Virus record (IMG/VR): IMGVR_UViG_3300044712_002068
Location: 6,816-70,815 of that record
Direction: 5' to 3' (one strand)
Length of the DNA stretch: 64,000 bases
Source: a virus
Both the position numbers and the translations under genes were made by a program. Below, in pieces: positions 1,158-63,564 of this stretch (position 1 is the first letter of the stretch; each line of letters opens with the position of its first letter). The notes under the pieces were generated by a model. The model was not told the origin of the DNA. It searched no databases and saw only the letters and a list, made by a program, of their open reading frames with translations.

Positions 1158-1607
1158 ATGACACGTCAAACACTTTCGAGCCTCATTGCAATCACGGTTT
1201 TATTGGGGGCGTGCAGTCAGTCGCCCCTAGAACAAAGTAAGGCGATCGCTACCCAATATCTAGAAGCGGTCAAGGCAGGCGACACAGCCACAGCCATGAG
1301 CCTATACTGCAACCCAGGCGCACAAGAGCTATCACCCATCAAAACGGTTAAGTCGTTCACTGTCGAGCCCACTGGGGAATCGACAGATCAGGGCGTTAGC
1401 TTCAACACGGTTGAGGCCACAGTGGTGAGTGTTGGCCTAACCGCAGATCACACCGATAAGTATACGATTTGGGTCATGACCCCACAGCAGGCGATCGCCC
1501 ATGAGCAGGCTGCTGCTGCGAGGTTTGCAGAGCTAGGCATGAGGCCAGAGCCCATCAACCCAGAGGAGTGGTCAAAAGCCGATCTATGTGTCGCTGTGCT
1601 CGATTAG
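1158..1607 (+). CDS. Lipoprotein (moron; possible superinfection exclusion)
   Basis: Signal peptide MTRQTLSSLIAITVLLGAC ending in lipobox LGA-C. Confidence 0.65.
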   Translation: MTRQTLSSLIAITVLLGACSQSPLEQSKAIATQYLEAVKAGDTATAMSLYCNPGAQELSPIKTVKSFTVEPTGESTDQGVSFNTVEATVVSVGLTADHTDKYTIWVMTPQQAIAHEQAAAARFAELGMRPEPINPEEWSKADLCVAVLD

Positions 1608-1641
1608 TCGGGAATGCTGGCCATAGAGCGCATAGGGCGAT

Positions 1642-4600
1642 ATGGCTGGCAAAAAGATCACGCTGGTAATCGAGACAGAGGGGGCGACACAAACCCTCAA
1701 AAATATCAAAGAGATCCAAAAAGCGGTGGGTGGGATTGGCTCTGGCAGTAGTGCGGGAGCCAAGGAAGCGAGTCGAGGTATTGCAGATCTAGCCTTTGGC
1801 TTTAACAACGTCGTGCAGGCTGCGCAGACCCTAGCTGCAACGCTCGCGCCTGCCTACGATCTGCTGATTGGCTCAAACGAGAAACTTAATCAGCAGCTGC
1901 TGCAATCGGCTGCCACCATTACCGCAACGTCCGACGTGTTCCAAAATGGCATCAAAATCGAGGACGTTGGCCAGTCGATCGACGCCCTGCAAACCCCGTT
2001 ATTAGCCGCTATCAAAGAGGTTGAGAAGGAGACTCAAAAGCTGGTGGGGGTCACGTCTGAGCAAACCTCGTCTGTGTTCAATACCATTTTGAGCAACGTC
2101 TCTCAGCTCAATAACCAATCCAAGCAGTTTCCTGACTCAATCCAAGCGGCTGCCAAGCTCGCACCCGGTCTAGTGGCCACGCTGGGCAGTTTGCAGCTAC
2201 CGATAGAGCAGGCGAGCCAAGAAATTCGCTCGATTCTAACGGGTGACATTGGGCCAGATAGCGCGATCGCCAAGGCTCTAAACCTTTCCCGTGAGCAAAT
2301 CAATGCCTATAAAGCACAGGGGATCTTAGTAGACGAACTGATCAAAAAGTTTGCGCCTTTCCTATCTGCCAATGCCAAGGCAGCGCTTAGCATTGGAGGC
2401 ATCACCTCGAATATCAAAGATATCTTCGAGATTCTCGGCAGAACGTCAGGCTCCGAGTTGCTAAACGTGGTCGTGGATCAGCTCAATACGATCTATCAGT
2501 TTCTGGAACAGAATCAGGAGGCGCTACAAAATACAGCAGTCGGCACCGTGGGGCGACTGGTTGAGGCGCTAAAGGTCGTGATTGACACCGTTACCAGGAT
2601 CGGGCAATCCATCACCGCAGCATTCTCAGGTGAGGATTTCTCAGGGCTGTCGGAGGTTGCCAACATTATTGGCGATGAGTTGATCGCAGCACTTAAGACC
2701 GCTGGTGATGTGCTGGTCGAGTTTGCCGATGTGGCGATCGCCAGTGTTAAGGGTCTACTGCCTGCATTCAAAGACATTGGCTTTGCTGCATTAGAACTAG
2801 GCAGGTTTATCGTGCAGGGGCTTAGGGCAGGGCTTGAGGCTGCATCAGCGCTCAATCAGGTCATGACTCCATTGCTCAATGTTGTGATCAAGCCCATTCT
2901 TGAGCAGGTCGGGGCGATCGCCATCAAAGTGGTGCAACTGGTCGAAAATGCCCAGTATGCAGTAGGGCTACTCACGGGTGCAGTAGGCGACAGTGGAGCC
3001 GCACTTGAAACCTACGGCAAATCGGTCGATCAAACGATTCGAGACGCGACCAGGGGACAGGGGGCTCTAACGGCTGCCATCTTGGCGCGACAGGCCGCTG
3101 AGGCAGGCGGCACCAAACTGACGGCAGAGCAGGCCGCTGCTGAGGCCGCTGCCGTGAAGGCATTGGAGGGCGACACCGCAGCGCTACGGGCAAGACGTGA
3201 CGAAATCGAGCAAACCGTTGCACTAGGCCCAGCACAGAAAAAGCAAAAAGAGCAGCTACTTGCCCAGATTGATAAAGAGATCGGGAAAAACGATCTACTG
3301 CTGGCCACGCTGGAAAAAACCGCACCGGCAACCGCAAACTCGGTCAAGGTCGCTGGAAGGGAACTTGAAAAGCTCGGAACCATTACCGATCAGCTTAAGA
3401 AAAAAGTTGACGATGCCCGACGCTCTCTATCAACGGCCACAACGAGCGAGGAGGCAGCAAAAGCCGCTAAAGACCTGCTCGACCTGACCCAACAACAGCT
3501 TGATTTAGGCGACATCACCCGAGATCAGGCGATCGCCAACGCTCAAGAGATTGCCAATAACGAGAGAATCCCAATCGAGCAACGGCTCGCAGCCCAGCAG
3601 GCATTGAGCAAATTTCAAGAGCAGGCATCAAACGATCGGGTGCAGCAGGTGCAGGCCGAACAACAAAAGGTGCAGCAGCTTGTTGCCAGTGGTCAGATCA
3701 GCGATGCAGAGGGTGAGGCGCAGTTAACCGCACTTAAGGCCAAGGAACTGGAAACTCGACTCGAAAACATTCGCGCTGCGCTCAAAGCCGAGCAGGATCT
3801 AGGGCGTGGCAACGGGCAACGAGCCAAGGATCTAAAACAGCAGGAAGCCGACCTAGTAACTCAGGTTGCAGAGGCCAGGGCAACGGCTCAAAAAGCGCAA
3901 CTGAGCAAACGGTTAGACGATATCGAGCGAGAGGGTAGACGGGTCGCAGCAGCGACAGAGCAGGCCGAATCAGAGCGCTTGCTCGCCACCCAACGACTGG
4001 TGAATGAGGGCGTTTTAACTGAACGGCAGGCGAGCCAGGAAAAGCTACAAATCACACGCGATCGCATTCAGTCGGAGTTGGCAGCCGAACAAGATAAACT
4101 CGCACAACTGCGATCGCTGCCCTCACCCACCGACCCAGACGAGCGAGAGCGGCTAGAGCAGCAAATTAGGGACTCAGTGACCCAGACGGCACGGCTACAG
4201 CTCAGCCTGCTCGAAAACGAGCGACAGGCCCAGCAAGCGCTCGCAGACGCTGCGATACAGGCAATCCGTGATCAGAGCGCTGAGGAACAGCGAGCAGCGC
4301 AGCGAAAGCAACAGTTTCAGCAGCAATTTATCTCTAATTTGGAGCGAGAAAAGGCCGCAAATCAGGCCGCATCCGCTGCACTGCAAACTCAATCTGACCT
4401 ATTGCAGTCTCAAGTCGGGTTACAGCAGGCATTGCAAAACCTCAGATCGACCACGGGACAGATTGAGATTGACCGATTAGAGCAGGCGCTGCAAATCAGG
4501 CAGCAGCTTGCCCAAACGACCGACGCAGCCACTCGGCAAGAGCTAGAACGGCAGCTATCGCTATTGCAAGGGCAAGTACAGGGCGTAAATTTGCGAGGCA

Positions 4601-5553
4601 GCGAGGCGCAACTCATTCGCCAGATTGGAGAGGAGCAAAAACGGAAAGCAGAGCAGGAACTAAAAGACCTGGAACTGCGCCAAATCGCAGCAAGGCGAGC
4701 CAACGAGCTAGAGATACAGCGCAATCAACTGGCCGCAGAGCGAGCAGTGATTGAGGCGCGGATTGCAGAAATTCAAGCACGACAGCAGGCGATCGCAGCC
4801 AATGCAGCGGTGAGAGAGGCTGACCGCAATGTACAGGCCGCTCAGCAAATCGTAGACCCAGAGGAACGGGCTCGGGCGGTTGCCGACGCCACATTTCAGA
4901 GGGATTCTGCGGTCAAAAATGTGGGCTTGGTCGAGCAACAGGTTGAGTTAGCTGGCCAGGTCACAGATCAGGCATTGCAGCAGGTCGATGCACAAGCTCA
5001 GCTTGCCGAGAACTCACGGCTCACCCTCAATGCCCAGCAGGCCACCGAACGCGCTACAGCCAGGGCCGCAGCCCAATCAACCGAGTTTTCTGCCAACCTC
5101 AGAACCGCAGCAGCATCTGCTCAGACCATTGCTCGCAGCTTGGGCGTCACCTCCGACGTGCAAGGGTTTAAGGATGGGGGTAATCCATCTGCTGGTCAGG
5201 TTGCCTGGGTGGGGGAAGCAGGGCCAGAGCTGGTCAAATTCGGAGCCAATGCACGGGTCTGGAGTAACTCCGACTCAATGCGGATTGCTCAGCGTGCTCT
5301 ATCGGGTGTGCCGTCAGTGGGGGCGATCGCCAGTGGGAACATGGGCGACCCACTGCTCAAAGCGGTGAACCGGCTCAATGATAACTTGAGTAACCTTGAG
5401 CCAGGGGTGCAGATTGGCACCCTACAGCAGAGCGTGACCAATCAAGTACCGCAGAACGAAAGGGCGATCGCGCAGCAAGTCGAGCAGGCAAATCTTGATT
5501 TATTGTGGGAATTAAAAGCAGGGCTGAGAGGTGGCAGGTTTGGCCGATTTTAA
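1642..5553 (+). CDS. Tail tape measure protein
   Basis: 1303 aa, Ala/Gln-rich coiled coil, C-terminal GFKDGG...VGEAGPELV motif typical of TMPs. Confidence 0.88.
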   Translation: MAGKKITLVIETEGATQTLKNIKEIQKAVGGIGSGSSAGAKEASRGIADLAFGFNNVVQAAQTLAATLAPAYDLLIGSNEKLNQQLLQSAATITATSDVFQNGIKIEDVGQSIDALQTPLLAAIKEVEKETQKLVGVTSEQTSSVFNTILSNVSQLNNQSKQFPDSIQAAAKLAPGLVATLGSLQLPIEQASQEIRSILTGDIGPDSAIAKALNLSREQINAYKAQGILVDELIKKFAPFLSANAKAALSIGGITSNIKDIFEILGRTSGSELLNVVVDQLNTIYQFLEQNQEALQNTAVGTVGRLVEALKVVIDTVTRIGQSITAAFSGEDFSGLSEVANIIGDELIAALKTAGDVLVEFADVAIASVKGLLPAFKDIGFAALELGRFIVQGLRAGLEAASALNQVMTPLLNVVIKPILEQVGAIAIKVVQLVENAQYAVGLLTGAVGDSGAALETYGKSVDQTIRDATRGQGALTAAILARQAAEAGGTKLTAEQAAAEAAAVKALEGDTAALRARRDEIEQTVALGPAQKKQKEQLLAQIDKEIGKNDLLLATLEKTAPATANSVKVAGRELEKLGTITDQLKKKVDDARRSLSTATTSEEAAKAAKDLLDLTQQQLDLGDITRDQAIANAQEIANNERIPIEQRLAAQQALSKFQEQASNDRVQQVQAEQQKVQQLVASGQISDAEGEAQLTALKAKELETRLENIRAALKAEQDLGRGNGQRAKDLKQQEADLVTQVAEARATAQKAQLSKRLDDIEREGRRVAAATEQAESERLLATQRLVNEGVLTERQASQEKLQITRDRIQSELAAEQDKLAQLRSLPSPTDPDERERLEQQIRDSVTQTARLQLSLLENERQAQQALADAAIQAIRDQSAEEQRAAQRKQQFQQQFISNLEREKAANQAASAALQTQSDLLQSQVGLQQALQNLRSTTGQIEIDRLEQALQIRQQLAQTTDAATRQELERQLSLLQGQVQGVNLRGSEAQLIRQIGEEQKRKAEQELKDLELRQIAARRANELEIQRNQLAAERAVIEARIAEIQARQQAIAANAAVREADRNVQAAQQIVDPEERARAVADATFQRDSAVKNVGLVEQQVELAGQVTDQALQQVDAQAQLAENSRLTLNAQQATERATARAAAQSTEFSANLRTAAASAQTIARSLGVTSDVQGFKDGGNPSAGQVAWVGEAGPELVKFGANARVWSNSDSMRIAQRALSGVPSVGAIASGNMGDPLLKAVNRLNDNLSNLEPGVQIGTLQQSVTNQVPQNERAIAQQVEQANLDLLWELKAGLRGGRFGRF

Positions 5554-6046
5554 TATGCTGCGGTTCCCCATACCAGAACCGCTGCTGACAACCTACAACA
5601 CAGCCGAAAATGCAGACCTGTTTGATGCGGAAAACTCCCATCTAATCTTGTATGTGCAGCCTGGGGGCTATCGCCCAGTGTGGACAGCGACGGGTGAAAC
5701 CTCGCTGGTCGATGGCTATGGCTCGACCGTCGTGCAAACTGCCAAATGGCGCTATGGGTTTGATGTGGCCACCATTGAGGGACGAACAGCACCCTATGAG
5801 ATAATCCGCACGCTGGCTCAGACCGCTGCTGCGGTGAAGGGACAATATAGCGCGATCGCAGTGTGGGATTATGTCAATCCCGAGCCAGGGGACGCAGCAG
5901 CAACAGGCTACACGGTGCGCAATACTCGGCTAGAAAACATCCAGCCCAGTGGCACAATCCGCGCAGACTCGGCATTTAATAGCGCTCGATACTCGCAAGG
6001 GTTTCAGTTTCGCTTGGTCGAGATTGAGGCGCGATCGCAGTATTGA
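5531..6046 (+). CDS. Putative distal tail protein
   Basis: 171 aa, overlaps end of TMP gene; positional inference. Confidence 0.45.
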   Translation: MAGLADFNMLRFPIPEPLLTTYNTAENADLFDAENSHLILYVQPGGYRPVWTATGETSLVDGYGSTVVQTAKWRYGFDVATIEGRTAPYEIIRTLAQTAAAVKGQYSAIAVWDYVNPEPGDAAATGYTVRNTRLENIQPSGTIRADSAFNSARYSQGFQFRLVEIEARSQY

Positions 6047-6050
6047 AATC

Positions 6051-6083
6051 GTTTTGAAACGTTTCAAAACGTTTTGGACGGGT
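6051..6083. repeat. AAACGTTT phased palindrome array, copy 1 of 5
   Basis: GTTTTGAAACGTTTCAAAACGTTTTGGACGGGT; related arrays at 12929, 13706, 17826, 18071. Confidence 0.85.
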
Positions 6084-6101
6084 TGAGGTCAATTTGTTAA
6101 T

Positions 6102-6266
6102 TTAAGCTTGCTGCCATTGGTCGAACAGCTGCTGTAATACGTCTGCTGGCGATTCCTTGCTAACGCCATGAGAGGCGATGAACTCCTCAAAAGATTCCTC
6201 TTGCTCAATGTCCAGAGAGTTATCGTTTACGATGGCATCCCATGCGCTCTCGCCTGAAAATTGCAT
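6102..6266 (-). CDS. Small acidic protein (54 aa), not in ORF track
   Basis: MQFSGESAWDAIVNDNSLDIEQEESFEEFIASHGVSKESPADVLQQLFDQWQQA translated by hand. Confidence 0.5.
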   Translation of the reverse strand: MQFSGESAWDAIVNDNSLDIEQEESFEEFIASHGVSKESPADVLQQLFDQWQQA

Positions 6267-6599
6267 TTAGTTACCTGATAGAAGGATGATGGCGATCGCC
6301 GCTCTCAATGCCCCCAGAGCGAGGGCGATCGCTACTCTTATTCTATCGAGAGGAAATCATCGGAGGTTGCAGGCTAGACCATAGAGTTTATCTGTCTGCC
6401 ATTTGCGCATTATCAGGTCAAAGTTTTCGCTGCTGAAAATACGGCAGTCCACACCACCAGACTCGAAATGCCAGAAAAGGGAATATCGTGCAGGTGCGCC
6501 ACCGCTGCAAATCCAAAAAACGGTTTCGTCATCCATGATTTTGATGGTGGGCGATCGCTCCCAGTCTGCACGTTAGCAAAGCGATCGCCTGCCCTAATA

Positions 6600-7070
6600 C
6601 TAGCCGCATCCCTTACCCACTTCACCAGGGCTGTCGGGCTTTACAAAATCTTTTGCACTGACCCAACCCTGTGGGCACCAAAACCCCCACTGTCGAATTT
6701 TAGGTCCAGTGATAAACAGGCTCACGACCGGGGCATCGTTGATCAGTTCAAGGCGATGCAGGGCTGTGGCATGGCGAAAAATGATGTCACCCTCACTCCG
6801 CTCTACTATGCCGTCTGGCGTCACCTCCCGATAGGCATTGATTAGCAAGATAGACAGGTTTGCCCACGGGTGATCATGCAGTTCCTTGTCTTTATCGCTG
6901 CGCTGGATCAGGTGCAGGTAGAGGTTAAGCACAGGATTGCGGGGTATCAGATGCCATCGCAGCAAGAGGGGGGAATCCTCTGAACCGATCATGAAATCGG
7001 GCGGTCGCCCTGCCTGAGTGCGGTCTGATAGCCTTAAGAGCGATCGCCTGAGAAACCGAGGAATTTTCAC
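6600..7070 (-). CDS. Cupin-fold phage protein
   Basis: YLHLIQRSD..LHDHPW...YRE...HRLEL...SLFITG..RQWGFW pattern. Confidence 0.65.
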   Translation of the reverse strand: MKIPRFLRRSLLRLSDRTQAGRPPDFMIGSEDSPLLLRWHLIPRNPVLNLYLHLIQRSDKDKELHDHPWANLSILLINAYREVTPDGIVERSEGDIIFRHATALHRLELINDAPVVSLFITGPKIRQWGFWCPQGWVSAKDFVKPDSPGEVGKGCG

Positions 7071-7087
7071 ACGGGAATCCTAGAAAC

Positions 7088-9565
7088 ATGCTGACCCTAG
7101 TTTCTCCCAATCTGCCGACCGTTACCACGGAGCCCCAATATGGTGGCGTCGTTGGCTCGCTGCCCACTGCGGATGTAGGGGCGATCGCCACCATATACGA
7201 CCGGCGTGAAAATTCGCCCCTAGAACAAAGTGCAGTTTTAGAAATTCCGTCCTACGCGGATGGCGAAATTTTCATCACCGCACCGACCGGGGTGGGGGCT
7301 GTGCTATCGGTGCGGTTGGATGGGTTGCTCTACTCGCCTGCTGACAAGTTGCCACGCAAGCCTGGAACCTACACGTTCAACCCCGAGACACTAGAGCTGG
7401 CGATCGCACTGCTGCCAGGGCAGAGCCCTACGGTGGGCACGTCGATCCAGTACCGATATAAGTTGGCTCGTCATTCGGGCTTAACTGCGCTTAGCAATGC
7501 GCTCAATGAGCAACAGCCCGACCTATTTAGAAACTGGAATGTTTCGGGTACGGTTTCGGTTTCTAGGTCGCTAGAGGGGCAACCATCAGGGAGTCTAGAG
7601 TTCTACATTCAGAGCGGCTATGAGGCGAGCGTGAGATCGACGTTCACACCGGGTGAGAAATTCATCTTTCACGGGTTTGGATACAGCGTTAACAGCCTCA
7701 AAATCGAGCGGCTGCGCAATGGGCTGATCAAGGCCAGCATTTCGCTGGGTGGCTATTGGGAGAATGAATTAGACGAGCCCGTTGCGCTGAATGATGCCGC
7801 TCCAGTGACTGGTGACGATGCCGCAGACGGTGCGACCAAGGGCAGCGAGAAAGCTGATAACTGCAACAGGGGTGTAGTCGGACTCGGCAATTTTGCCCGT
7901 AGGGTCGGGGTACCGCTGCGAGGTGTAAACGTATCGCGCACCGTGCCAGCCGACACCCCAGCCGACGCGACCACGACGCTCGGACAAGAGGTACAGAGTC
8001 GAGCACTGGGGGCTGGGGCCGTCGTGCGCTACAGCGACCCTAATGCTGTCGTAATTGAGCGGTGGGCCGCAACGAAACACCATATTTTGAGCGCTGCGGA
8101 TATCGTGTCTGAGTCGATATCCATCAACCTGCAAGGCGATGGAGCCACCGATAACAGCAGCACCGACGGCACAGCCAGCAAGCTGGCTCAAGAGTTCAAA
8201 AACACGCGCCTTGACCTGGATCAGGGCGATGGGGCCAGCGCTGACGACTCTCAGGGCGATGTCAAGCAGGTTTTTTATAGTGGCGATCGCTCTTATTTCC
8301 TGTCTGTGCAGGTGGACTCCTTTCGTGATACCGGCCATGCGTTTGACAATGGTGGGCCGACCAAAACCCTCAAAAAAGTGGTCAAGCTGAACGGGCAAAC
8401 CCTCACTGAGAATGAGCAGGTGTGGGGCTATTGCTACGCAGCCACCGACGTTTACACCCTGATCAGCGCAGCGGGAGGCAGTCAGACCCGCTACGGGTGG
8501 CGATACTCTGGGCCGTTTGTCAATGGTCAGGCTTTTTGGCGAAAGGTGAGCGATGTCTCGACCGAATATATCTATGGTGAGTATGGCTATTTGGTGGGGG
8601 TGAAAACCACGGGCTATAAGCTGGCTCGGTTCAACAGCGATCGCGACCAGAAAAGTTTAGAGATTAAGCTGGCCATGGTCACGGGTGTGGCTGCAAATAG
8701 CGATCCAGGGGCTATCACGGTAGGGATTGAGAGTCTAGTAAAGCAGCTCGCACTGCGAACCGACTTCCAGAAACTTGCTGTCAACGACACCACGACCTAT
8801 AACCTTGCTCCATTCCGGGGGCTTTACCCCGACATAGAAAAGGGGCAAAGTGAAGATTGGGTAGAGCCGCTCTATGCCGAGCGGATGCAGCGAATTGACC
8901 GGACGGAGGCCATCACACCCGACCCAGAATCGACCAACGAGAAACCTAAGCCCGATCTAGTGGTCGGCAAAAACTATCGAGAGGAAAAGTCGGTTGAGAT
9001 TGTCTATCCAACTGCCACAATTCCAAAGAAGAATTACCAGCAGAACAAGGACTTTTATAGAGCCGTGAGCCTCACCCAGAATGCAGAGGGGCCAGGGCTC
9101 AAAGATGGCCTAACTACCGAGCAATTCGACGACAATTCGGGCAGGCCCAGCGTGCAGACCCGACTCACCAAAACAGGCGATCGCTGCCGACCGATTGCGC
9201 TCAATGCCGCCAAGACGGGCATGAAATACTTGCTCAAAACCGCAGGGGTAAACACCACATCCGACAAGGTTGAAGACGGCAGCGTAAATTATCCAGGCGC
9301 GACCACGCCAGAGGAGGGGCTAAAGGCTGCCGAGACTCAGGCCAGTATCGACAACACCACGACGGTGGAAACCTGGGAGCTGACCGTGCTGCCCACTAGA
9401 CGCTACACCGAGGGCGATCGCGTCACTGTTCTAGGGGTGACGTTTATTGTGCTCAGCGTGACGGAGGCGAGGAAAATTCAGGGCAATTTAGTGACCAGTG
9501 ATGGATGGCAACTGACGCTGGGTAAATACCTAGCACCAAGGATAGAACTAAGGGAGGTGGGTTAG
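7088..9565 (+). CDS. Large tail/baseplate hub-like structural protein
   Basis: 825 aa, position in tail cluster, C-terminal EGDRV..LG..F.V.SV hub-like beta region. Confidence 0.5.
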   Translation: MLTLVSPNLPTVTTEPQYGGVVGSLPTADVGAIATIYDRRENSPLEQSAVLEIPSYADGEIFITAPTGVGAVLSVRLDGLLYSPADKLPRKPGTYTFNPETLELAIALLPGQSPTVGTSIQYRYKLARHSGLTALSNALNEQQPDLFRNWNVSGTVSVSRSLEGQPSGSLEFYIQSGYEASVRSTFTPGEKFIFHGFGYSVNSLKIERLRNGLIKASISLGGYWENELDEPVALNDAAPVTGDDAADGATKGSEKADNCNRGVVGLGNFARRVGVPLRGVNVSRTVPADTPADATTTLGQEVQSRALGAGAVVRYSDPNAVVIERWAATKHHILSAADIVSESISINLQGDGATDNSSTDGTASKLAQEFKNTRLDLDQGDGASADDSQGDVKQVFYSGDRSYFLSVQVDSFRDTGHAFDNGGPTKTLKKVVKLNGQTLTENEQVWGYCYAATDVYTLISAAGGSQTRYGWRYSGPFVNGQAFWRKVSDVSTEYIYGEYGYLVGVKTTGYKLARFNSDRDQKSLEIKLAMVTGVAANSDPGAITVGIESLVKQLALRTDFQKLAVNDTTTYNLAPFRGLYPDIEKGQSEDWVEPLYAERMQRIDRTEAITPDPESTNEKPKPDLVVGKNYREEKSVEIVYPTATIPKKNYQQNKDFYRAVSLTQNAEGPGLKDGLTTEQFDDNSGRPSVQTRLTKTGDRCRPIALNAAKTGMKYLLKTAGVNTTSDKVEDGSVNYPGATTPEEGLKAAETQASIDNTTTVETWELTVLPTRRYTEGDRVTVLGVTFIVLSVTEARKIQGNLVTSDGWQLTLGKYLAPRIELREVG

Positions 9566-55411: not shown

Positions 55412-55479
55412 CCCGCCCCTAGAACAAATGCCAAAATAGACCACGGGAATGATGGGAGCAGTGCTACGGATGCCCACCC

Positions 55480-57969
55480 ATGCCCGAAACTCTGCCCAGC
55501 GACTCAAAAGACCGCATCTTAAACGAGTTACTCTACCTGCAACTCACAGACAATCTAAAGCCCGTCAGTGAGTTGCCAGAAGAATGGCAGGCTGCGGACT
55601 ATGCCGAGCGAGATGACCTAGATAAGGTGTGGAGCCAGTACCACGATACGGTCAACATGACGGCATCGCAGCTTAAGCAGTGGTCTGAGGGTGAGTATTC
55701 TAAAGCTGCCAGTCAGGGGCGATCGCCCATCACCCGCAATCTTGAGCTACTGAGCACGCCTAAAGACAAGTGGACAGCAAAACATATCCGATGGGCAAAA
55801 AAGACCATCGGGTTTGTGGCACGGATGAAGGAGGCAGGCCAGGGCGAGCCAGTCAGCAAAGATATACCCTACTCAAAGCGTGATATCAGCCTGAAAAATT
55901 GGGCGTATGACCCTAAGAGCAGTTCAGACCACTCTGAATCGCTCGGTTTCAGCGAAGGAGTCAACCGGGTTGTGATGAGGTCTGGGGCGATTGACTTTAG
56001 AGCCGTAATCGACCGGGTTGTTAAGTCGAACGGGCTAGAGATTGGGCTTGAATATTTGCCCGGTGGGGTGCGGTTCCCTGGCACCAAACACAGCAAAAAG
56101 CTGCGCTGCGGCTATGGCCACATCAGGGGCTATCAGGGCAACGATAAGGAGGCACTCGACTGCTACGTTCACCCCGATGTGCTCGATGGGGTTGAGGGTG
56201 CAGGCGATCGCCCCATGTTCGCTGTATCTCAACTCTCGCCAGAGGATGGCGATTTTAATGAGTACAAAATCATGATCGGGTGGGAATCGGCTGACGCTGC
56301 TGAGCAGGCTTACCTCAGAGAAATGCCAGAGGAGTATTTTGGGGGGATTGAGGAGGGCGATCGCGAGTGGTTGCAACAGTTCCACAAATCAGCCAGTTTT
56401 GAGGAATCGATCGACTTTGCACGCCTCAAACTGGCAGGCAATACCCAGCAGATTAAGAACTGCACCAAAGGCTGGCCTTGCGGGTTCACCTGCTTGAGCC
56501 GAGCTAAGAAAAATTGCAAACGGCAGTTAGAGGGGCAATCTGCTGACCTGCAACAGTGGCTAGAGAAAAGCGCAGCAGCGACACCCAAGGATCAGCCACA
56601 AGTCACCACCAAAACAAAACGTCTTACCTTAGACGATGCACTGAAAATCCCCAAAGCCGAGCGTCCATCTATCGTCAAGATTGGCGATAGCTTCAAAGAA
56701 AAGGATGCACCGTACATCGTTGAAGAGGGGCCATACGGCGATCGCAAGCGCTACGCAGAGGATGCCTACACCGATTCATTCATGATCCGCAGCCAAAACA
56801 GTGGGCAACTGGCTCGATACTATGCGGTGATGTCTGACGGCACGACGCAGGGGCTAGATTCTGCGTTTATGCTGTCGAAGCCAGAGCATTACTCAAAGCT
56901 CAAGCGCAAGCTGACCGGCAGCGGTGGGGGCATTGATAGCGCTGCTCGGGAGTATTGGAAGCTCGCAGGCGAGGAGGAACGCACTGCACTGGCCAACGAT
57001 GCCACGCTGCTGGGGCGTGTTAAAGAGCTATTGCCACAATCGACCATCGGCAGCCCTAAATCAGTTGTGCTCGCCTATGATGAGCATCCTGAGTGGGGTA
57101 GACGTGAATACCTCGTGATTGAGGGTGAGCGAGGGTTTCGCACGATCCAAAACATCGACTTTGAGCCCAAAACAAAGGGCAGGTTTTCATCGGGAAATAA
57201 GCCGATTGATGAGGTCTTAGACGAGGAATCTAAAGCCAGTGGGCTATTTTTCGATCGGCAGATGCCTCAGTATTGGAATGCTGACGCGATCGCCAGTGGG
57301 CTAGGAGTCAAGCGGCTGCCCGACGTGTCTGTACCTCCTAATACCTCAAGTGTTTCTGAGGCTGCTGCTCGCAGAGTGCAGTATTTCAGGGATAAGCAGG
57401 ATGCACGGTTTTCAACCGACTCGACCCCAGCGAAACCCCGAATCGAGCTTAAGGATGCTGTGACCCCAGACGACCGGGCAAAATACGCTCGGCAGGAGCT
57501 AGAACTAGCCCGTCAGAGCGGCGATCGCACCCGTATCAGCAAATGGGAGGCAGAAGCAAAGCGCACCCGTCAGGCAGCATTAGAGGCCGAGCAGCAGCGA
57601 CTCAGCCAAACCCAAACCAGCTTGTTTGGAGTGGATGAGCACAGCAATTTGCCGCTGTTCAATTTCAGTGAGGATCGAGCACTCGATATTGCTGCAATCT
57701 TTGCAGAGCAGGCCATTGAGCAGGCTAAACCAGCGATCGCCCAATGGACTGGCACCATACAGAAGCTAATCAACGAGGTGGCGAGCGGGTCTGGCTCCGA
57801 CCGAGAGAAGTTTATCGAGTTGCAAGAGCGCTTACCCGAGCTTTACCCACGGCTCTCGATCGTTGAGTTTGCCGACGTTCTAGGGGCGGCTTTGTCGGCT
57901 GCTGAGGGGGCTGGTCGGTATGAAGTGATTGAGGGTCTAGGGGTTGAGGAGGCGAGTTTTGAGCTTTAA
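55480..57969 (+). CDS. Polyvalent protein: DUF3140-like, inorganic-pyrophosphatase-like, Cys4 tag, unknown domain, portal-type C-terminal helical domain
   Basis: VNMTASQL..W...SLKNWAYDP; YGHIRG..G.D.EALDCYV...SQ....FNEYKIMIG; LPELYP.L....LGAAL.AA...GRYEV. Confidence 0.7.
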   Translation: MPETLPSDSKDRILNELLYLQLTDNLKPVSELPEEWQAADYAERDDLDKVWSQYHDTVNMTASQLKQWSEGEYSKAASQGRSPITRNLELLSTPKDKWTAKHIRWAKKTIGFVARMKEAGQGEPVSKDIPYSKRDISLKNWAYDPKSSSDHSESLGFSEGVNRVVMRSGAIDFRAVIDRVVKSNGLEIGLEYLPGGVRFPGTKHSKKLRCGYGHIRGYQGNDKEALDCYVHPDVLDGVEGAGDRPMFAVSQLSPEDGDFNEYKIMIGWESADAAEQAYLREMPEEYFGGIEEGDREWLQQFHKSASFEESIDFARLKLAGNTQQIKNCTKGWPCGFTCLSRAKKNCKRQLEGQSADLQQWLEKSAAATPKDQPQVTTKTKRLTLDDALKIPKAERPSIVKIGDSFKEKDAPYIVEEGPYGDRKRYAEDAYTDSFMIRSQNSGQLARYYAVMSDGTTQGLDSAFMLSKPEHYSKLKRKLTGSGGGIDSAAREYWKLAGEEERTALANDATLLGRVKELLPQSTIGSPKSVVLAYDEHPEWGRREYLVIEGERGFRTIQNIDFEPKTKGRFSSGNKPIDEVLDEESKASGLFFDRQMPQYWNADAIASGLGVKRLPDVSVPPNTSSVSEAAARRVQYFRDKQDARFSTDSTPAKPRIELKDAVTPDDRAKYARQELELARQSGDRTRISKWEAEAKRTRQAALEAEQQRLSQTQTSLFGVDEHSNLPLFNFSEDRALDIAAIFAEQAIEQAKPAIAQWTGTIQKLINEVASGSGSDREKFIELQERLPELYPRLSIVEFADVLGAALSAAEGAGRYEVIEGLGVEEASFEL

Positions 57970-58021: not shown

Positions 58022-58168
58022 TCAGTTGATGGGGTTCAATACCCCAGAGATTGACAATTTTCTCAGCAACTCACGAATAACATCGGACTGCGTTCTGTCT
58101 GTCAGCTTGCAGTACTTTTGCAAATGCTCAATCTCACGATCTGGCAATCTAATACTAATCTGTGGCAT
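58022..58168 (-). CDS. CopG/RHH regulator of the IS
   Basis: MPQISIRLPDREIEHL..YC....RTQSDVIRELLR. Confidence 0.8.
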   Translation of the reverse strand: MPQISIRLPDREIEHLQKYCKLTDRTQSDVIRELLRKLSISGVLNPIN

Positions 58169-58204
58169 GGTAGCAAATTTATAGTGATATGCTACAATAG
58201 TATC

Positions 58205-59434
58205 ATGCAAACCGCCTACCAGTACCGATTAAGATTGACTCGACAACAGCAAGCCACAATTGATAGCTGGCTTGAACTTTGCCGTAGGCAGTACAACTAT
58301 CGGATGGCAGAGAGGTTTAACTGGTGGGAGCAAAACCGCTGTGATATAAACGCTTGTCCACTTGTTTGCTATCTGCCAGAACTTAAAGACCGTCCTGACT
58401 TCTATTCGCAAAAAAGAGATCTAGTCAACTCCAAAAAGCTGTTTCCAAGGTATGCAGAGATTCCTTCTCATACCTTGCAAGATGTAGTAAAGCGCGTAGA
58501 AAAGACGTTTGACCGATGGCTAAAAGGGGATTGCAATGGCAAGCGTAGCGGCAAGCCGCGATTTAAGGGTATAGGGCGCTATCGGTCACTAGGCTTTCCT
58601 GACCCAGTAAAAACTGAACATATTCAGGGCAAGTTTATTCAACTTCCCAAACTTGGCAAGTTAAAGCTGATTTTGCATCGCCCCATTCCTGACGGATTCT
58701 CTATCAAGACTGCTGTAATTACCAAAAAAGCAGATGGCTACTGCATCGCGCTGTCACTGAAAGATTCGTCTGTACCTGAACTTAGCCCTGATCTGCCAAC
58801 TGTAGATAACACTATCGGGATTGATATGGGGCTGAAATCCTTTTTGATTGACAGCGACGGAAAAGACGAGCCGATCCCCCAGCACTACCGCAAAGCCGAA
58901 AAGCAATTGCGACGAATACAGCGCTCTCTATCTCGCAAGAAAAAAGGGTCAAACAACAGACGCAAAGCAGTCAAGCGAGTTGCTCGTCAGCATCTTAGGG
59001 TTGCTAATCAGCGCAAAGACTTTCACTACAAAACAGCTAAAAAACTGTTATCCAAAGGGAAAAACATCGGGCATGAAAGCCTGAACATTAAGGGTTTGGC
59101 AAAGTCTCGGCTAGCCAAATCGGTTAACGATGCTGGATGGGGGCAATTCCTGCAAATCCTTTCAATTAAAGCTGCAAATGCTGGGTTGATGACGATTGCG
59201 GTAAATCCAAACGGCACAAGCCAGGATTGTTCAGGTTGCGGCACAAAAGTTCCAAAGACGCTTGCTGTCAGGTGGCATAGCTGCCCTGAATGCAAATGTG
59301 AACTCGACCGTGACCACAATGCAGCTATTAATATCAGGAATAGGGCGGTAGGGCATTCCGTTCTTAAAGCTTCTGGAGTCCTAAGCAATAGCCGGACTGC
59401 GAAGGAAGAAGCCCGCGCTCTATGCGAAGCATGA
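58205..59434 (+). CDS. tnpB: RNA-guided endonuclease TnpB
   Basis: AYQYRL, GIDMGL, HESL, CSGCG/CPEC, DRDHNAA. Confidence 0.95.
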   Translation: MQTAYQYRLRLTRQQQATIDSWLELCRRQYNYRMAERFNWWEQNRCDINACPLVCYLPELKDRPDFYSQKRDLVNSKKLFPRYAEIPSHTLQDVVKRVEKTFDRWLKGDCNGKRSGKPRFKGIGRYRSLGFPDPVKTEHIQGKFIQLPKLGKLKLILHRPIPDGFSIKTAVITKKADGYCIALSLKDSSVPELSPDLPTVDNTIGIDMGLKSFLIDSDGKDEPIPQHYRKAEKQLRRIQRSLSRKKKGSNNRRKAVKRVARQHLRVANQRKDFHYKTAKKLLSKGKNIGHESLNIKGLAKSRLAKSVNDAGWGQFLQILSIKAANAGLMTIAVNPNGTSQDCSGCGTKVPKTLAVRWHSCPECKCELDRDHNAAINIRNRAVGHSVLKASGVLSNSRTAKEEARALCEA

Positions 59435-59972: not shown

Positions 59973-62900
59973 GTGGCCACAGCTTACGAACGGCTCAAGT
60001 TTGACGAGGCGATCGCCTACTTTAAGCAGAAAATACCGCTGCCTACCGAAACTTGGCAGCAAATTATCAACGACGCTCAAGACTGGGCCTTTACACTTTC
60101 AGGGGTCGAGAGTGCCCTAGTTTTGCAGACGGTTTACGATAAACTGCTGCAAATCTTGGAGGCTGAAAGCGAAACAGTAGACACGTTTCAGGAGTTTGCC
60201 GATACCTTTCAGCAGACCATGCAGGCCGCTGGCTATGGGCAGCAGTCGCCTTGGCGAGTGGCGCTGGTCTATGGGCAGAATATTCGCACGGCTTACAATG
60301 CAGGGCGATATCGGCAGCAGACTGACCCTGAGTTGATGGCTGCTAACCCCTACCTGCAATGGGTGCACGACCACCCGTTGGAGCCTCGACCCCACCATAA
60401 GGCGCTACACCTAAAGGTTTTTAGGGCTGATCATCCCATCTGGAAAACCATCTATCCTGCATCGGGGTTTGGTTGTTTCGCCAAAGGAACATTAGTCGCA
60501 ACCGAAAGCGGCTGGAAACCCATTGAATCAATTGCTGTGGGCGATCGCGTCATTGGGGGCAGCGGTGACATCAAGCCTGTAAACGCCGTTCACTCGATAC
60601 CCTACAGCGGAGAGATGATAAGGGTTTCCTGTAAAGGTGTTGACGATACTCTTGCGACCCCAAACCACCGTTTTTTGACTGCCAGGGGTTGGATCAGAGC
60701 TGATTCTCTGCTTGAGAGCGATGTACTCATCCAGGTCGGCCAACTTCCCAGCATTGACATATCGGTTGGCAAGGTAAACAAGATCGATTCCGCTGCTGAC
60801 AATGCTTGCGTGACGCTCCCAAGAGAGAGGCAGTCGAGCAAGGCCAAAACATTCAATCCCCAAACTCAATGCAGGGATAAACACGTCAATCCAATAGGGG
60901 TAGACGTGATGATTATGAATAACCTCAAAACCCATCGCCCTGATGTGGTTGATAACCGCAGCCTCAATCTTCGTAGGCTTGGCGATTGCACAGGGGTGGC
61001 TCAATGGGTTGAGCTTGTGTGTGCGTTTAAGGCTGGCGACGATTTTTGCCCTAACGTCAGGTCTTCTAGCAGATGTAGTGATCCTGAGTTTTTCAGCAGC
61101 AGTTCTCCGGCCAGGGCAGTTCTCTTTGGTCTTGCCAGTATTTGGAGCCCGACCCTCGGCGGACATCCTCCTCATAACCTCTTTGCCGACCTGCCGGGTC
61201 TTCTCTCTCCGCTCATCATTACCAGCCCATTGAAGGGCGACGGCTTCACTGCCTCTTCTAACGGGTACGTTAAGCTGCTCGAAAAGCTTCATGATGCTGT
61301 GATTTCCAGCACTCCAGCGATCGCACAACTGCCTGATCGTCATCTTGTCCACAACGTAGAGCCTGTGCAAAACGTCTCCGATCTCGCCAGCCTGACAGCC
61401 CTCAATAGCTGCAATTTTGCTCAGCAATTGAACACTGATCTCACCCTTGGCCAGACGCCTGCGGGGAATGCCAAAGTAGCTCATTATGCCGAAAACAGCG
61501 GACACGGAGCACTGGAATCTATCAGCGATCGCCTGCAACGTCATTTCCTGCTCAATGTAGAGGAGCCGCAAGGCTTCGTTAGCGGGGCACCCCTCGATCG
61601 ATTCGATTCGTTGAATGAGTTTCTGAGATGGTGCGCTACCCATGCGACTCTTACCCCAATAAACAGGCTAGAAAAAACGCTCTACACTGGCACCGTGCAT
61701 GATTTAAGTATATCCCAAGATGAAAGCTATGTAATCGTTTCAGGGATTGTGCATAATTGCCGTTGTCGGGTTTTTGGTTTGAGCGATCGCGACCTGGCAC
61801 GAGAGGGGCTCGCAGTTGAGGAGCCACCGAGCCAGACGGTTACAATCCGCGATCGCATCACGGGCAAAACACAGCGAGTGCCAGCGATCGAGGTTGATGG
61901 GGTACTGTATCCCATTGCAGAGCCAGGTTTTACCACGGCACCGGGGGCGTCACCCCTAGAACAGCGGCAACAAATTTTAGAGGGTGCGCTCAATCGCATG
62001 AGCCCACGACTGCGAGAGTTGGCAGCGCAGCAGATTGACTTTACCGAAACCCTCGACTTTGCACAGCTCAAAAACGCAGGCAACACCAAACAGACCAAAA
62101 ACTGTGTTAAAGGGTGGCCTTGTGGGTTCACCTGCCTCAGCAGGGCCAAGAAGAACTGTAAACGCAAGCTAGAGGGGCAATCGGTCAGTCTTCAGGAGTG
62201 GCTCAAGCTAAATCAGGCTATAGGCTCAAATGAGTTTGCCGAGCGCTACGCCGCATCGTGGAGCAATGCCCCAGATGATCTCAAGTCGGTTATTGGTGCA
62301 CAACCCAAGCCCAAAGAGCTATCTGGAACCGTAGAGAGAGTAGCCTACTTTCAGTCTTCAATGGGCGGCATTTATATGAATGGCTACACGCCAGACCACC
62401 CACAGGGCGAGGGGGTTTGGCGGCATGAGTATGGCCATCATCTTGACCATGAATTGGTGGCCAGCGCGATCGCCCTGGCTGATAAACAGATTGCTGCAAA
62501 GCGCTCTGAGATGGGCAAAGGTACCCGCAGCATTCAAGAGGCAAGCAAGCTGAGTACAGAGTTTTTGAGGCTGCAAAACGATCGAGCCAGTCTAGACAAG
62601 GTGCGCTACACCTCAAGCGCTAGCGGCTATACCAGGAAGGTGCACAACGATAGCGATCGCTTGGTCAAGGGCCGAGCGCAAACGTTAGAGCTGATGAGTA
62701 CTGGGTATGACAAGCTCAGCGCCTATGCCGAATCAATCAGGCGCGACCCAAAACAGCGAAGCGAGTTTACCGTAATTGACAAAGCAAGAATCGGCGGTAT
62801 CCCAATCAATGTGAGGAACGGCGCTCGATCCCTTGCAGACTACCCAGATGATGACAGGCTCTACTATCTGCGCGGGTTTTACAAAGACTACGAGCGAGGG

Positions 62901-63371
62901 CAGATAGAGCGCGATCGCCATTCTGATGCTGATGAAAACGCCCATGCTGCGCAGTGGGGCGATCGCCACTTTGAGGGGAGAGACGATATTTATGCCCAAA
63001 CGTGGCAAGAGGCGCGGCGGATGGGCGTTGAGCTAACCCCAGGCAACACGGCGAGCCTGATCACCGCAGACCGTTTTAACGACCGAGAGCTATTGGTCGC
63101 ATTTGTTGACGGGAAGATCGCTAGTGAAGACAAAATGAGCGGAGTAACGCCTGATTTTATTGGCTCAATCACCCTGAACAAAGTAGGGCGGGGGCATAGT
63201 GACGACTACTATGCCAGCTCTCCAGACAACCGCTACACCGAAACGTTTGCCAATTTTGTCGCGATGTACGGCTCAGGAAAGCCATACTATAACAATCTGA
63301 TGAATGACCTTGCCCCAGAGACTTACGCTGCCTACCGAGAGCTGATCGACGATGCTGCAAGACAAACTTGA
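59973..63371 (+). CDS. MuF (gp30-like) head morphogenesis protein with intein, Cys4 tag and C-terminal zincin-like domain
   Basis: F.EAI.YF..K, AFT.SG, N..TAY.AGRY, PRPHH..LH..VF..DHP.W..IYP..GFG/CRC; RHEYGHHLD and ETFAN. Confidence 0.88.
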   Translation: MATAYERLKFDEAIAYFKQKIPLPTETWQQIINDAQDWAFTLSGVESALVLQTVYDKLLQILEAESETVDTFQEFADTFQQTMQAAGYGQQSPWRVALVYGQNIRTAYNAGRYRQQTDPELMAANPYLQWVHDHPLEPRPHHKALHLKVFRADHPIWKTIYPASGFGCFAKGTLVATESGWKPIESIAVGDRVIGGSGDIKPVNAVHSIPYSGEMIRVSCKGVDDTLATPNHRFLTARGWIRADSLLESDVLIQVGQLPSIDISVGKVNKIDSAADNACVTLPRERQSSKAKTFNPQTQCRDKHVNPIGVDVMIMNNLKTHRPDVVDNRSLNLRRLGDCTGVAQWVELVCAFKAGDDFCPNVRSSSRCSDPEFFSSSSPARAVLFGLASIWSPTLGGHPPHNLFADLPGLLSPLIITSPLKGDGFTASSNGYVKLLEKLHDAVISSTPAIAQLPDRHLVHNVEPVQNVSDLASLTALNSCNFAQQLNTDLTLGQTPAGNAKVAHYAENSGHGALESISDRLQRHFLLNVEEPQGFVSGAPLDRFDSLNEFLRWCATHATLTPINRLEKTLYTGTVHDLSISQDESYVIVSGIVHNCRCRVFGLSDRDLAREGLAVEEPPSQTVTIRDRITGKTQRVPAIEVDGVLYPIAEPGFTTAPGASPLEQRQQILEGALNRMSPRLRELAAQQIDFTETLDFAQLKNAGNTKQTKNCVKGWPCGFTCLSRAKKNCKRKLEGQSVSLQEWLKLNQAIGSNEFAERYAASWSNAPDDLKSVIGAQPKPKELSGTVERVAYFQSSMGGIYMNGYTPDHPQGEGVWRHEYGHHLDHELVASAIALADKQIAAKRSEMGKGTRSIQEASKLSTEFLRLQNDRASLDKVRYTSSASGYTRKVHNDSDRLVKGRAQTLELMSTGYDKLSAYAESIRRDPKQRSEFTVIDKARIGGIPINVRNGARSLADYPDDDRLYYLRGFYKDYERGQIERDRHSDADENAHAAQWGDRHFEGRDDIYAQTWQEARRMGVELTPGNTASLITADRFNDRELLVAFVDGKIASEDKMSGVTPDFIGSITLNKVGRGHSDDYYASSPDNRYTETFANFVAMYGSGKPYYNNLMNDLAPETYAAYRELIDDAARQT
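60474..61757 (+). mobile_element. Intein (428 aa) in MuF
   Basis: Block A CFAKGTLV, block B ATPNHRFLT, block F VHDLSI, block G IVHN followed by +1 Cys; splicing restores GFG-CRCRV. Confidence 0.92.
60528..61643 (-). CDS. Antisense-encoded HTH + DUF559/Vsr-like endonuclease nested inside the intein
   Basis: Two LY....MT...IA/LC HTH repeats ending IPRR/VPVR, NUMOD-like basic linker, PTKIE...YWIDVFIP...IECFG nuclease motif. Confidence 0.78.
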   Translation of the reverse strand: MGSAPSQKLIQRIESIEGCPANEALRLLYIEQEMTLQAIADRFQCSVSAVFGIMSYFGIPRRRLAKGEISVQLLSKIAAIEGCQAGEIGDVLHRLYVVDKMTIRQLCDRWSAGNHSIMKLFEQLNVPVRRGSEAVALQWAGNDERREKTRQVGKEVMRRMSAEGRAPNTGKTKENCPGRRTAAEKLRITTSARRPDVRAKIVASLKRTHKLNPLSHPCAIAKPTKIEAAVINHIRAMGFEVIHNHHVYPYWIDVFIPALSLGIECFGLARLPLSWERHASIVSSGIDLVYLANRYVNAGKLADLDEYIALKQRISSDPTPGSQKTVVWGRKSIVNTFTGNPYHLSAVGYRVNGVYRLDVTAAPNDAIAHSN

Positions 63372-63543
63372 CCTCTATTACCTCAAGTTTGGGCATACCT
63401 TTTCGGTGTTTGCCCTTGACCTGAGTAGCCCTGAGGTATCGCAGCGGCTTGAGCAGTTGATTGATGCAGCACTGGCAGGCGATCGCGGCCCTGTGACAGA
63501 CGCTGATTTGGGTATTTCTGTGCCCAAAGACGCCCTGATTTAA
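63352..63543 (+). CDS. Small protein overlapping MuF stop, candidate immunity partner
   Basis: 63 aa, YYLKFG..F...LIDAAL. Confidence 0.5.
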   Translation: MLQDKLDLYYLKFGHTFSVFALDLSSPEVSQRLEQLIDAALAGDRGPVTDADLGISVPKDALI

Positions 63544-63564
63544 CCAATGTTCTAGGGGTGGGCT

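Follow-up and report, generated by a model that had tools for sequence, protein, structure and literature searches.

A dispersed, asymmetric DNA word in a temperate cyanophage genome and its possible role as a docking site for a phage protein

The virus record IMGVR_UViG_3300044712_002068 of IMG/VR comprises 70,815 bases, and its bases 6816–70815 form the 64,000-nucleotide stretch of DNA analysed here (the window; positions are those of the window unless the record is named). Within it, the 10-mer CCCCTAGAAC occurs in 24 exact copies (13 on the + strand and 11 on the − strand). Two extra copies upstream of the window, at record positions 3142 (−) and 5318 (+), bring the whole record to 26 (14 + and 12 −), a density of 368 per Mb. 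The word is exact, at least 12 bp long, asymmetric and under selection at the DNA level, and its copies are evenly spaced and biased towards gene junctions in the genome of a temperate phage. Something probably reads CCCCTAGAAC on the phage DNA itself, with a phage protein as the probable reader. We tentatively favour the reading that the word may be a dispersed docking site of a putative phage-encoded DNA-binding protein, by analogy with the stoperators of Cluster A mycobacteriophages.

A first-pass annotation, made from the sequence alone, had reported 24 exact copies on either strand, several 9/10 matches and a chance expectation of about 0.1 copy. Our recount agrees exactly, and 12 one-mismatch sites were counted. 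In 100 dinucleotide-preserving shuffles of the window the mean was 0.06 copies and the maximum 1, and Markov models of orders 0–4 expect 0.08–0.23 copies on both strands (orders 5–6 are contaminated by CCCCTAGAAC itself). The one-mismatch sites are only 12, compared with 2.8 sites expected for 0–1 mismatches, and none of them varies at T-A-G. When synonymous codons were shuffled with all called proteins kept, a mean of 6.6 copies was left, essentially those touching no shuffled codon. Because the coding copies vanish under this shuffle, protein sequence and codon usage are not their cause. The enrichment therefore survives both kinds of correction, Markov and codon.

The influence runs from the word to the protein. 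CCCCTAGAAC inflates the tripeptides P-L-E (15 observed and 6.3 expected; CCCCTAGAA accounts for 10 of them) and V-L-G (17 observed and 8.8 expected; GTTCTAGGG accounts for 6 of them). Within genes, sense copies are translated as P-L-E(-Q) and antisense copies as V-L-G, and all 16 clearly coding copies lie in the frame that reads CTA as Leu. Two further copies that strict gene calls place in coding DNA, 20835 and 46508, are in the CCT-AGA frame. The occurrence of the word in coding DNA (as PLEQ and VLG) and in intergenic DNA was thus described correctly in the annotation, and its suggestion of selection on DNA, as with the highly iterated palindrome HIP1 (GCGATCGC), is supported by the surviving enrichment and the inflated tripeptides. 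HIP1 is itself abundant here, with 153 copies in the window and 167 in the whole record. Apart from HIP1 derivatives, no other dispersed 10-mer is as abundant as CCCCTAGAAC; the next 10-mer after these two has 9 copies and comes from clustered AAACGTTT arrays. These arrays, of the form AAACGTTT(C/T)AAAAC, lie at about 6051–18110 of the window. Avoidance of CTAG was considered and rejected (208 observed and 225 expected). The phage is present in four rhizosphere metagenome runs, whose contigs are identical to the window at the covered copies; their divergence is too small for this identity to bear on conservation. Three of the four runs are possibly the source of the record, and no RNA run was among those listed.

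The conserved site extends beyond the 10-mer. Of the 26 copies, 20 have C and 6 have T at base −2, and 16 have G and 10 have A at base −1. Together these two bases form CG in 10 copies, CA in 10, TG in 6 and TA in none; a pyrimidine-purine step (YR) thus precedes 26 of 26 copies, compared with 38% of the other CCCC runs in the genome. Since every copy has this step, the site is at least 12 bp long. The extension to C(G/A) plus the word, noted in the annotation, is real, with T replacing C in the six copies mentioned. Downstream, +1 is A in 15 of 26 copies and +2 is A in 14, and positions +1, +2, +4 and +5 are also informative. Ten sense copies at junctions share TCG-CCCCTAGAAC-AATGGT (the 19-mer TCGCCCCTAGAACAATGGT), and the 12-mer CGCCCCTAGAAC has 10 copies in the phage. 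No conserved block was found farther upstream among the copies. CCCCTAGAAC differs from its reverse complement, and neither of its palindromic forms, CCCCTAGGGG and GTTCTAGAAC, occurs.

The annotation had also described a hairpin of two copies at 44399–44438. The 12-bp stem is real, and only one of its arms is an exact copy (44426–44435, −); the other, CCCCTAGAAT at 44402–44411 (+), matches in 9 of 10 positions. An inverted partial copy of 9 nt precedes copy 7217 by about 30 nt. Nearby inverted partial copies of at least 7 nt were found at 2 sites, compared with 1.7 in controls, and fold z-scores are mostly near 0; RNA structure was dropped as an explanation. A LexA box was rejected as well. 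The cyanobacterial box, as given in the available part of its description, is RGTACNNNDGTWCB with half-sites GWAC-N4-GTWC (PMC3091678). One half-site is present in the word as AGAAC, but copies inspected by eye have just GTY in place of the other, and a LexA box would leave the invariant YRCCCCT part unexplained.

The positions of the copies relative to genes were read from a crude gene map made with our own codon-score caller. By strict calls, 8 of the 26 copies touch non-coding DNA, compared with 20 of the 167 HIP1 copies (P = 0.009); per kb, non-coding DNA holds about 4 times as many copies of CCCCTAGAAC as coding DNA does, an excess that HIP1 does not show in this genome. Once over-long starts are revised by eye, up to 12 of the 26 copies lie at gene junctions, where their orientation follows the genes in a ratio of 10:2 (P = 0.04). 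Six copies (14149, 20429, 20835, 25051, 28366 and 46508) are 1–15 nt upstream of a start on the same strand, in front of ORFs (open reading frames) of 58–191 aa. At four of these, and at the 9/10 variant 27977, the arrangement is word-A-ATG or word-AA-ATG. An automatic test of start proximity gave 5 copies and an expectation of 0.94 (P = 0.0024). A copy is held by 8 of the 49 gaps of at least 10 nt, and the TAG of the word serves as a gene stop in just 1 of 26 copies, so that a stop-codon role was dropped.

The copies are spaced more evenly than random, the gaps having a coefficient of variation (CV) of 0.57 compared with 0.95 by chance (P ~0.002), at a mean density of about one site per 2.7 kb. 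The evenness persists under nulls that keep the coding/non-coding split and without insertion sequence and intein DNA. Copies are divided 14:12 between the strands, and the two orientations succeed each other at random along the genome; taken strand by strand, the spacing is weakly regular (CV 0.58, P = 0.03, and 0.73, P = 0.24). Even, orientation-blind spacing and a preference for cheap junction positions look like selection for chromosome coverage. Some distances between neighbours recur (4076/4081/4081, 1579/1584/1596 and 2290/2291). Five pairs agree within 5 nt and 0.6–0.7 are expected, with a P of about 0.001 that is inflated because the recurrence was noticed before the test. The four longest word-free stretches are 1224–7217, which holds a 1303-aa gene; 39017–44426, with the integrase, an attachment-site fragment and a TnpB element; 28366–33591, an immunity-like region with an HNH gene and genes for Cro-like and XRE helix-turn-helix (HTH) proteins; and 50589–55416, with the portal gene. 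No exact copy is present in either TnpB gene (42892–44067 and 58118–59434), in agreement with the annotation.

The start-proximal copies have the following settings. Copy 14149–14158 (−) is 2 nt upstream of ATG 14146 of an HNH ORF (157 aa). Copy 20429–20438 (+) lies in a 97-nt gap, 1 nt before ATG 20440 of a 58-aa ORF, and 20835–20844 (+) occupies the final codons of ORF 20621–20854, followed by GGAGG and GTG 20860 (152 aa). At 25051–25060 (−) the word's TAG is the stop of ORF 25054–25452 (−); this copy overlaps a HIP1 site and is 1 nt before ATG 25049 of a 118-aa DUF6283 ORF. The 9/10 variant CCACTAGAAC at 27977–27986 (+) is 1 nt before ATG 27988 of the DdrB-like gene, and copy 28366–28375 (+) lies in the 20-nt gap after that gene, 7 nt before ATG 28383. 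Copy 46508–46517 (−) is 1 nt before ATG 46506 of a 124-aa ORF (phrog_1084).

Other copies at or near gaps are less tightly bound to starts. Copy 37672–37681 (+) has the full junction consensus TCG...AATGGT, and the ATG that follows opens 28 codons only. Copy 39017–39026 (−), in antisense orientation, precedes ATG 39057 by 30 nt within a 256-nt gap, and the hairpin copy 44426–44435 lies 4 nt past the stop of ORF 44440–44802 (−). Copy 50589–50598 (+) is in a 21-nt gap of convergent genes, 6 nt past a TAA stop. Copy 55416–55425 (+) is in a 68-nt gap, 4 nt past the stop of ORF 55208–55411 and 54 nt before ATG 55480, and 63549–63558 (−) is antisense in the short gap between ORF 63352–63543 and the next + gene.

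Within genes, the sense copies reading S-P-L-E-Q are 1224–1233 (+) in ORF 1131–1607, 7217–7226 (+), 129 nt past the first start of ORF 7088–9565, and 61953–61962 (+) in the MuF-like gene 59973–63371. P-L-E-Q is read at 18139–18148 (+) in ORF 17851–18396 and at 33591–33600 (+) in ORF 33195–34097, P-L-E-L at 11719–11728 (+) in the middle of ORF 10774–12864, and P-L-E-P at 45473–45482 (−) in ORF 44802–45653 (−). The antisense copies, all reading V-L-G, are 9428–9437 (−), 128 nt from the end of ORF 7088–9565; 13951–13960 (+) in the HNH ORF 13673–14146 (−); 15733–15742 (−) in ORF 15439–16170; 26787–26796 (−), 99 nt into the DHH phosphoesterase gene 26688–27689; and 57877–57886 (−), 83 nt from the end of ORF 55480–57969.

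Bases 1–127 of the record equal bases 70689–70815 (window 63874–64000), an exact 127-bp terminal direct repeat. Because the ends are identical, the genome is complete, circular or circularly permuted, and 70,688 bp long. Its proteins were searched with Pfam (90 ORFs, E <= 0.01) and PHROGs (20 ORFs, 19 of them also Pfam-scanned), and a few small ORFs of our own gene map lie beyond these scans. The genes include those for a large terminase, a Mu-type portal, a MuF-like protein with an intein (59973–63371), a capsid protein, a cement protein, Mu gp36/gp37-like proteins, a head protease, a GH108 lysin, an O-like replication initiator, the DHH phosphoesterase and the DdrB-like protein. The integrase is ORF 41361–42521 (−) (386 aa; phrog_1, E = 2.5e-10; the Pfam Phage_integrase match is weak and below the cut-off). 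Beside it, 42629–42698 was read by eye as the 70-nt 3' two-thirds of a tRNA-Ser(GCU)-like gene; ARAGORN found no whole tRNA and Rfam no match in the phage DNA. The tyrosine integrase and the tRNA-Ser fragment make up an integration module, with the fragment as the probable attachment core. Since the integrase adjoins a tRNA-Ser 3' fragment, the phage is temperate.

The 153 HIP1 copies in the window indicate that the host is a HIP1-bearing cyanobacterium. The tRNA-Ser fragment is the best clue at hand to this host; two cyanobacterial genomes (G200 and G208) match it at 100% identity and many others at 87–96%. A TnpB element adjoins the integration module on the far side of the fragment. Both TnpB (OrfB_IS605) genes are without HIP1, the genome average being one HIP1 per about 420 bp, and their best DNA matches in cyanobacteria have 72–75% identity; both elements look like recent arrivals. 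The load of homing-endonuclease-type genes is heavy for 71 kb, with three HNH, two GIY-YIG, one T5orf172/HTH_36, the intein and the two TnpB elements. Apart from TnpB, they lie at 13673–14146 (−), 18798–19307 (−), 23852–24340, 28917–29879 (−), 35316–35861 and 47357–48091, with the intein in 59973–63371. In gene 20860–21318, contigs of two runs (X4 and X2) differ at about 30 positions within the 150 nt of 21132–21282, mostly at third codon positions, and are identical in the adjoining DNA, a pattern that suggests local divergence of the allele or a patch brought in by recombination.

The word was sought in possible hosts. The 10-mer was counted in 473 cyanobacterial genomes, composed of 4 reached via loci, 401 across the phylum (one overlapping) and 69 of an 89-genome family that holds the two genomes with the identical tRNA-Ser; all 89 members were counted. 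It was not enriched in any of them: the maximum was 38 copies in 5.0 Mb (7.6 per Mb), compared with 368 per Mb in the phage, and the reversed control word had 27 copies in that same genome. The 12-mer CGCCCCTAGAAC was counted in 301 genomes of the same order, of which 210 were additional to the 473, and never exceeded 5 copies in a genome. A host-wide repeat is therefore rejected for the genomes searched (473 for the 10-mer and 301 for the 12-mer), a sample that may not include the host. The annotation's likening to HIP1 holds for DNA-level selection, with the asymmetry it had noted, and fails for distribution: no genome was enriched (473 and 210 further), and the density in non-coding DNA is about 4-fold. 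Its suggestion of a Chi/KOPS-like signal is unlikely, because there is no strand polarity (14:12, random order) and no host enrichment, and the phage has Rec-like genes.

Among the matches listed, the 14-mer had single, chance-level matches in genome contigs, and a second copy of the 10-mer was found in none of 169 loci from contig and viral scans. When 20 kb of phage DNA was compared with the 301 genomes, neither spacer-like nor prophage matches emerged, and the TnpB DNA, at no more than 75% identity to cyanobacteria, gave no lead to the host. The portal query found no relatives in IMG/VR, and a phages collection gave no megablast match to the phage. Terminase relatives reach 45–60% identity at most. 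Four full-length IMG/VR relatives and the locus L186 have no exact copies in their whole records, nor have metagenome loci with related terminase genes. Prophages in two genomes (G234 and G400) share only terminase genes with the phage. In the literature, among the matches listed, the word and its complement appear only in unrelated primer or oligonucleotide uses. A k-mer screen of terminase-related loci found 6–7 copies of AAAGTGCGGT in 12–21 kb (L282, L298 and L327) and 20–28 copies of GCAGCCTGAA in 9–15 kb (L283, L288, L289, L297, L299 and L333). We take AAAGTGCGGT to be the Pasteurellaceae uptake signal sequence (USS) and GCAGCCTGAA to be a Neisseriaceae-type DNA uptake sequence (DUS). Since the screen caught such uptake-sequence-like words in Mu-type prophage loci of other bacteria, the approach has power.

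The exactness of the copies and the rewriting of codons mean that something reads double- or single-stranded DNA (or RNA) at the word. The word is present in the phage and at background frequency in the searched hosts, which suggests that the phage encodes the reader. We infer that a protein reads the word, that the phage encodes this protein and that the outcome may be transcriptional. In such a mechanism, YR-CCCCTAGAAC would be a phage-specific recognition site held by selection on DNA, and the protein would occupy the lytic operons throughout, with one site for every 2.7 kb or so. Once bound, it would silence or punctuate transcription. The sites would be placed in junctions where this is free of cost and written into codons where genes are long. 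Cluster A stoperators are the closest model. In the available part of the description, they are more than 20 asymmetric 13-mers bound by a monomeric two-domain repressor (L5 gp71 and the TipsytheTRex repressor), lie at promoters and in short intergenic spaces and are oriented with transcription; the L5 sites are intergenic and strictly oriented (PMC9283540). As far as that description goes, CCCCTAGAAC shares with them an asymmetric 12–13 bp site and more than 20 copies across a temperate phage; some of its copies lie at short junctions, and its orientation may be related to transcription. The temperate lifestyle, copy number, asymmetry, junction bias and word-free lysogeny modules agree with the stoperator model, and two of the four longest word-free gaps, the immunity-like and integration regions, are where stoperator logic predicts them.

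Several proteins are candidates for the reader. One is a phage sigma factor of 291 aa with Sigma70_r2 (E = 8.6e-17) and KilA-N domains (L361:1358–2233 in the record; phrog_351, E = 6e-31). Its KilA-N DNA-binding domain stands where region 4 would, and the gene is in front of the head genes. Others are an HTH_23 protein of 254 aa (record 302–1066, −), the head maturation protease (L361:2275–3675; phrog_976, E = 5e-76) with an XRE/Cro HTH inserted at about residues 240–300, a Cro-like protein of 75 aa (29992–30219, −) and an XRE-type ORFan of 194 aa (31241–31825, −). ORFs 39057–39722 and 17851–18396 are further DNA-binding candidates. An XRE/Cro-type HTH inside a head protease is an odd fusion for a virion protease.

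A number of observations weigh against a stoperator-like docking site, and we do not file the word as a stoperator. The copies lie within genes in 14–18 of 26 cases and are antisense to the local gene in 8 of 26; taken together, the 18 sense and 8 antisense copies show no significant bias in orientation (P = 0.08). The crudeness of our gene caller is a caveat for all placement results. Typical operator sets are also much less exact than these copies (26 exact and about 12 one-mismatch). None of the seven divergent gaps of at least 10 nt contains a copy, although operators at early promoters are expected there; the copy nearest to such a gap, 14149, falls within a strictly called ORF adjoining the 43-nt gap 14180–14222, at a depth of 21 nt. 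In contrast to stoperators as covered by the source, more than half of the copies in this phage are in genes and about one third are antisense, and the copies are exact where the stoperator consensus is degenerate. The host differs too, being a cyanobacterium, and no gp71-like repressor was recognised. Among the candidates, the 194-aa XRE protein and the product of ORF 17851–18396 had no match to solved structures at E <= 0.5, and the former, as an ORFan, has no homologues for model building. The short loci of relatives hold no prominent private word of an analogous kind; non-HIP1 10-mers reach at most 3–6 copies in the closest, and no relative was found in which word and protein could be seen to have evolved together. 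Binding by a protein, one of the annotation's suggestions, stays the best reading, as a tentative one.

The placement of some copies suggests instead an expression element at gene starts, either TCGCCCCTAGAAC-A-ATG as a start-associated sequence or a promoter −10/discriminator for the phage sigma factor, with leaderless mRNAs beginning at the A of ATG and in-gene copies as by-products. The excess of copies before starts described above (six copies and the variant 27977) agrees with this proposal, as do the gaps, only 1–2 nt in four of the six, which leave no room for a Shine-Dalgarno sequence as leaderless starts require, and the Sigma70_r2 and KilA-N protein is a possible reader. We nevertheless consider the proposal rather improbable. 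Only 6–7 of the 26 copies are at starts, few of the gaps hold a copy, and the proposal accounts for 10 of 26 copies at most; 8 copies are antisense and 8 in-gene sense copies are 257–2339 nt or more from the next start. No −35-like block is conserved upstream, and the AATGGT/TTTGGT flank is also present where no gene follows, at 44426, 50589 and 63549. Pairing with rRNA was rejected, since the best complementarity to the 16S rRNA of G200, a candidate host relative, is 7 nt and is away from the 3' end. The even spacing regardless of orientation, with a long, exact and asymmetric site, would suit an enzyme better than a regulatory site, and the word could be the target of a phage enzyme that makes single-strand nicks, or mark recombination hotspots or priming or packaging landmarks. 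The many site-specific nucleases listed above are in keeping with such a target, and so is the DHH/RecJ-like and DdrB-like module, in which three copies or variants (26787, 27977 and 28366) fall within 1.6 kb. However, nick words in the available part of the published account are one-stranded (PMC11780129) and here the strands are 14:12, and the spacing per strand is only weakly regular. No primase was matched in the ORFs scanned (E <= 0.01), the replication protein being an O-like initiator; given this and the per-strand CV, primase start signals were rejected. An enzyme target of this kind is unlikely on balance.

A third explanation dispenses with a function: the word may be left by biased repair or gene conversion, methylation-linked and very-short-patch-like, encoded by the host or the phage. 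Such 'painting' is evident for HIP1 in this genome, which has 167 copies and 32 after the synonymous shuffle, with 81 A-I-A tripeptides where 10.9 are expected. The dinucleotides before the word look as if CpG were the ideal and its deamination products were tolerated, exact copies far outnumber one-mismatch copies, and the TnpB elements lack both the word and HIP1. However, repair should give Poisson spacing without preference for junctions or orientation, and the observed spacing is even (P = 0.002) with a roughly 4-fold preference for non-coding DNA. No methyltransferase or Vsr-type match was found in the 90 Pfam-scanned ORFs, and a host-encoded system should paint the host too, which was not seen in the genomes searched. 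The methylation/repair-driven origin put forward in the annotation thus keeps the CG/CA/TG pattern in its favour and is, in our estimate, improbable, a minor rival. If the word instead belonged to an unsampled host lineage, as a DUS- or Chi-like word acquired by prophage amelioration as HIP1 was, its statistics would be familiar, since uptake sequences are exact, asymmetric, present on both strands, set in a preferred frame, enriched in non-coding DNA and found in hairpins after genes. The AAAGTGCGGT and GCAGCCTGAA loci show prophages carrying host words at such density, and the lack of a spacer or prophage match in the 301 genomes is consistent with an unsampled host. We regard this as very unlikely, because neither the 10-mer nor the 12-mer was enriched in the genomes searched, including all 89 of the tRNA-Ser family, and, for Chi in particular, because the phage has its own Rec-like genes, a class reported, in the accessible part of the source, without Chi (PMC12315714).

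A more novel reading, which we consider doubtful, is a phage-autonomous genome-marking system, in which a phage-encoded reader of an evenly spaced 12-bp word in either orientation, confined to the phage chromosome among the genomes searched, would tell phage from host DNA. The word would then, for example, direct or limit recombination, nuclease attack, packaging or silencing. It would be a private phage counterpart of Chi, DUS or perhaps HIP1, and this genome would carry it alongside HIP1.

Dispersed phage-specific words have been described in a few phage groups (stoperators, start-associated sequences and nick motifs), and their reader or purpose is mostly unknown. One temperate cyanophage genome with a host-type word, HIP1, and a phage-only word allows a direct comparison of how such words are maintained; they are unlike in their spacing, their placement with respect to genes and their sharing with hosts. 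Identification of the reader could reveal a new silencing or self-recognition system and provide a tool of 12–19 bp specificity in cyanobacteria. CCCCTAGAAC would then also serve as a test case for other hyper-abundant words of phages.

Compared with known systems other than stoperators, CCCCTAGAAC has partial likenesses. The start-associated sequences (SAS) of Cluster K mycobacteriophages, in the part of the report available, are nearly all 3–7 bp before a start, in one orientation and with an AGGAG core, and their function is unknown (PMC3203893). On that account, SAS and the related ESAS (extended start-associated sequences) resemble the word as phage-specific asymmetric repeats a few nt before ATG, sometimes including the stop codon of the preceding gene, that are absent from the host. 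The word differs in that only 6–7 of 26 copies are at starts, no AGGAG core is present, and the copies run in both directions and are not confined to one genome arm. The nick motif WACTRTGAC was described in the Pseudomonas phages tf and Rembedalsseter, and nick-associated 9-mers are enriched in 61 phages, according to the available part of that study (PMC11780129). That motif is likewise a short, asymmetric, phage-specific word, over-represented about tenfold or more in and outside genes and without known function; within the scope of that source, it is on one strand and clustered at one genome end, whereas CCCCTAGAAC is on both strands and evenly spread. USS, DUS and the words of Chi-rich phages are also exact and asymmetric, 8–12 nt long, on both strands and partly in hairpins, at about one per 1–3 kb in temperate phages. 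They are defined by abundance in the host, which was not found here, and Chi-rich phages lack Rec modules in the part of the source at hand (PMC12315714), whereas this phage has Rec. HIP1 is palindromic and host-wide in cyanobacteria, as stated in the available parts of two reports (PMC5861425; PMC13756078). By comparison with those accounts, CCCCTAGAAC is asymmetric and, among the genomes searched, was found in the phage alone; in this phage HIP1 outnumbers it about 6 times, and it has a preference for non-coding DNA. Nevertheless, HIP1 and CCCCTAGAAC are alike in being hyper-abundant, non-randomly spaced and written through genes against codon and amino-acid preference, and both are present in this phage.

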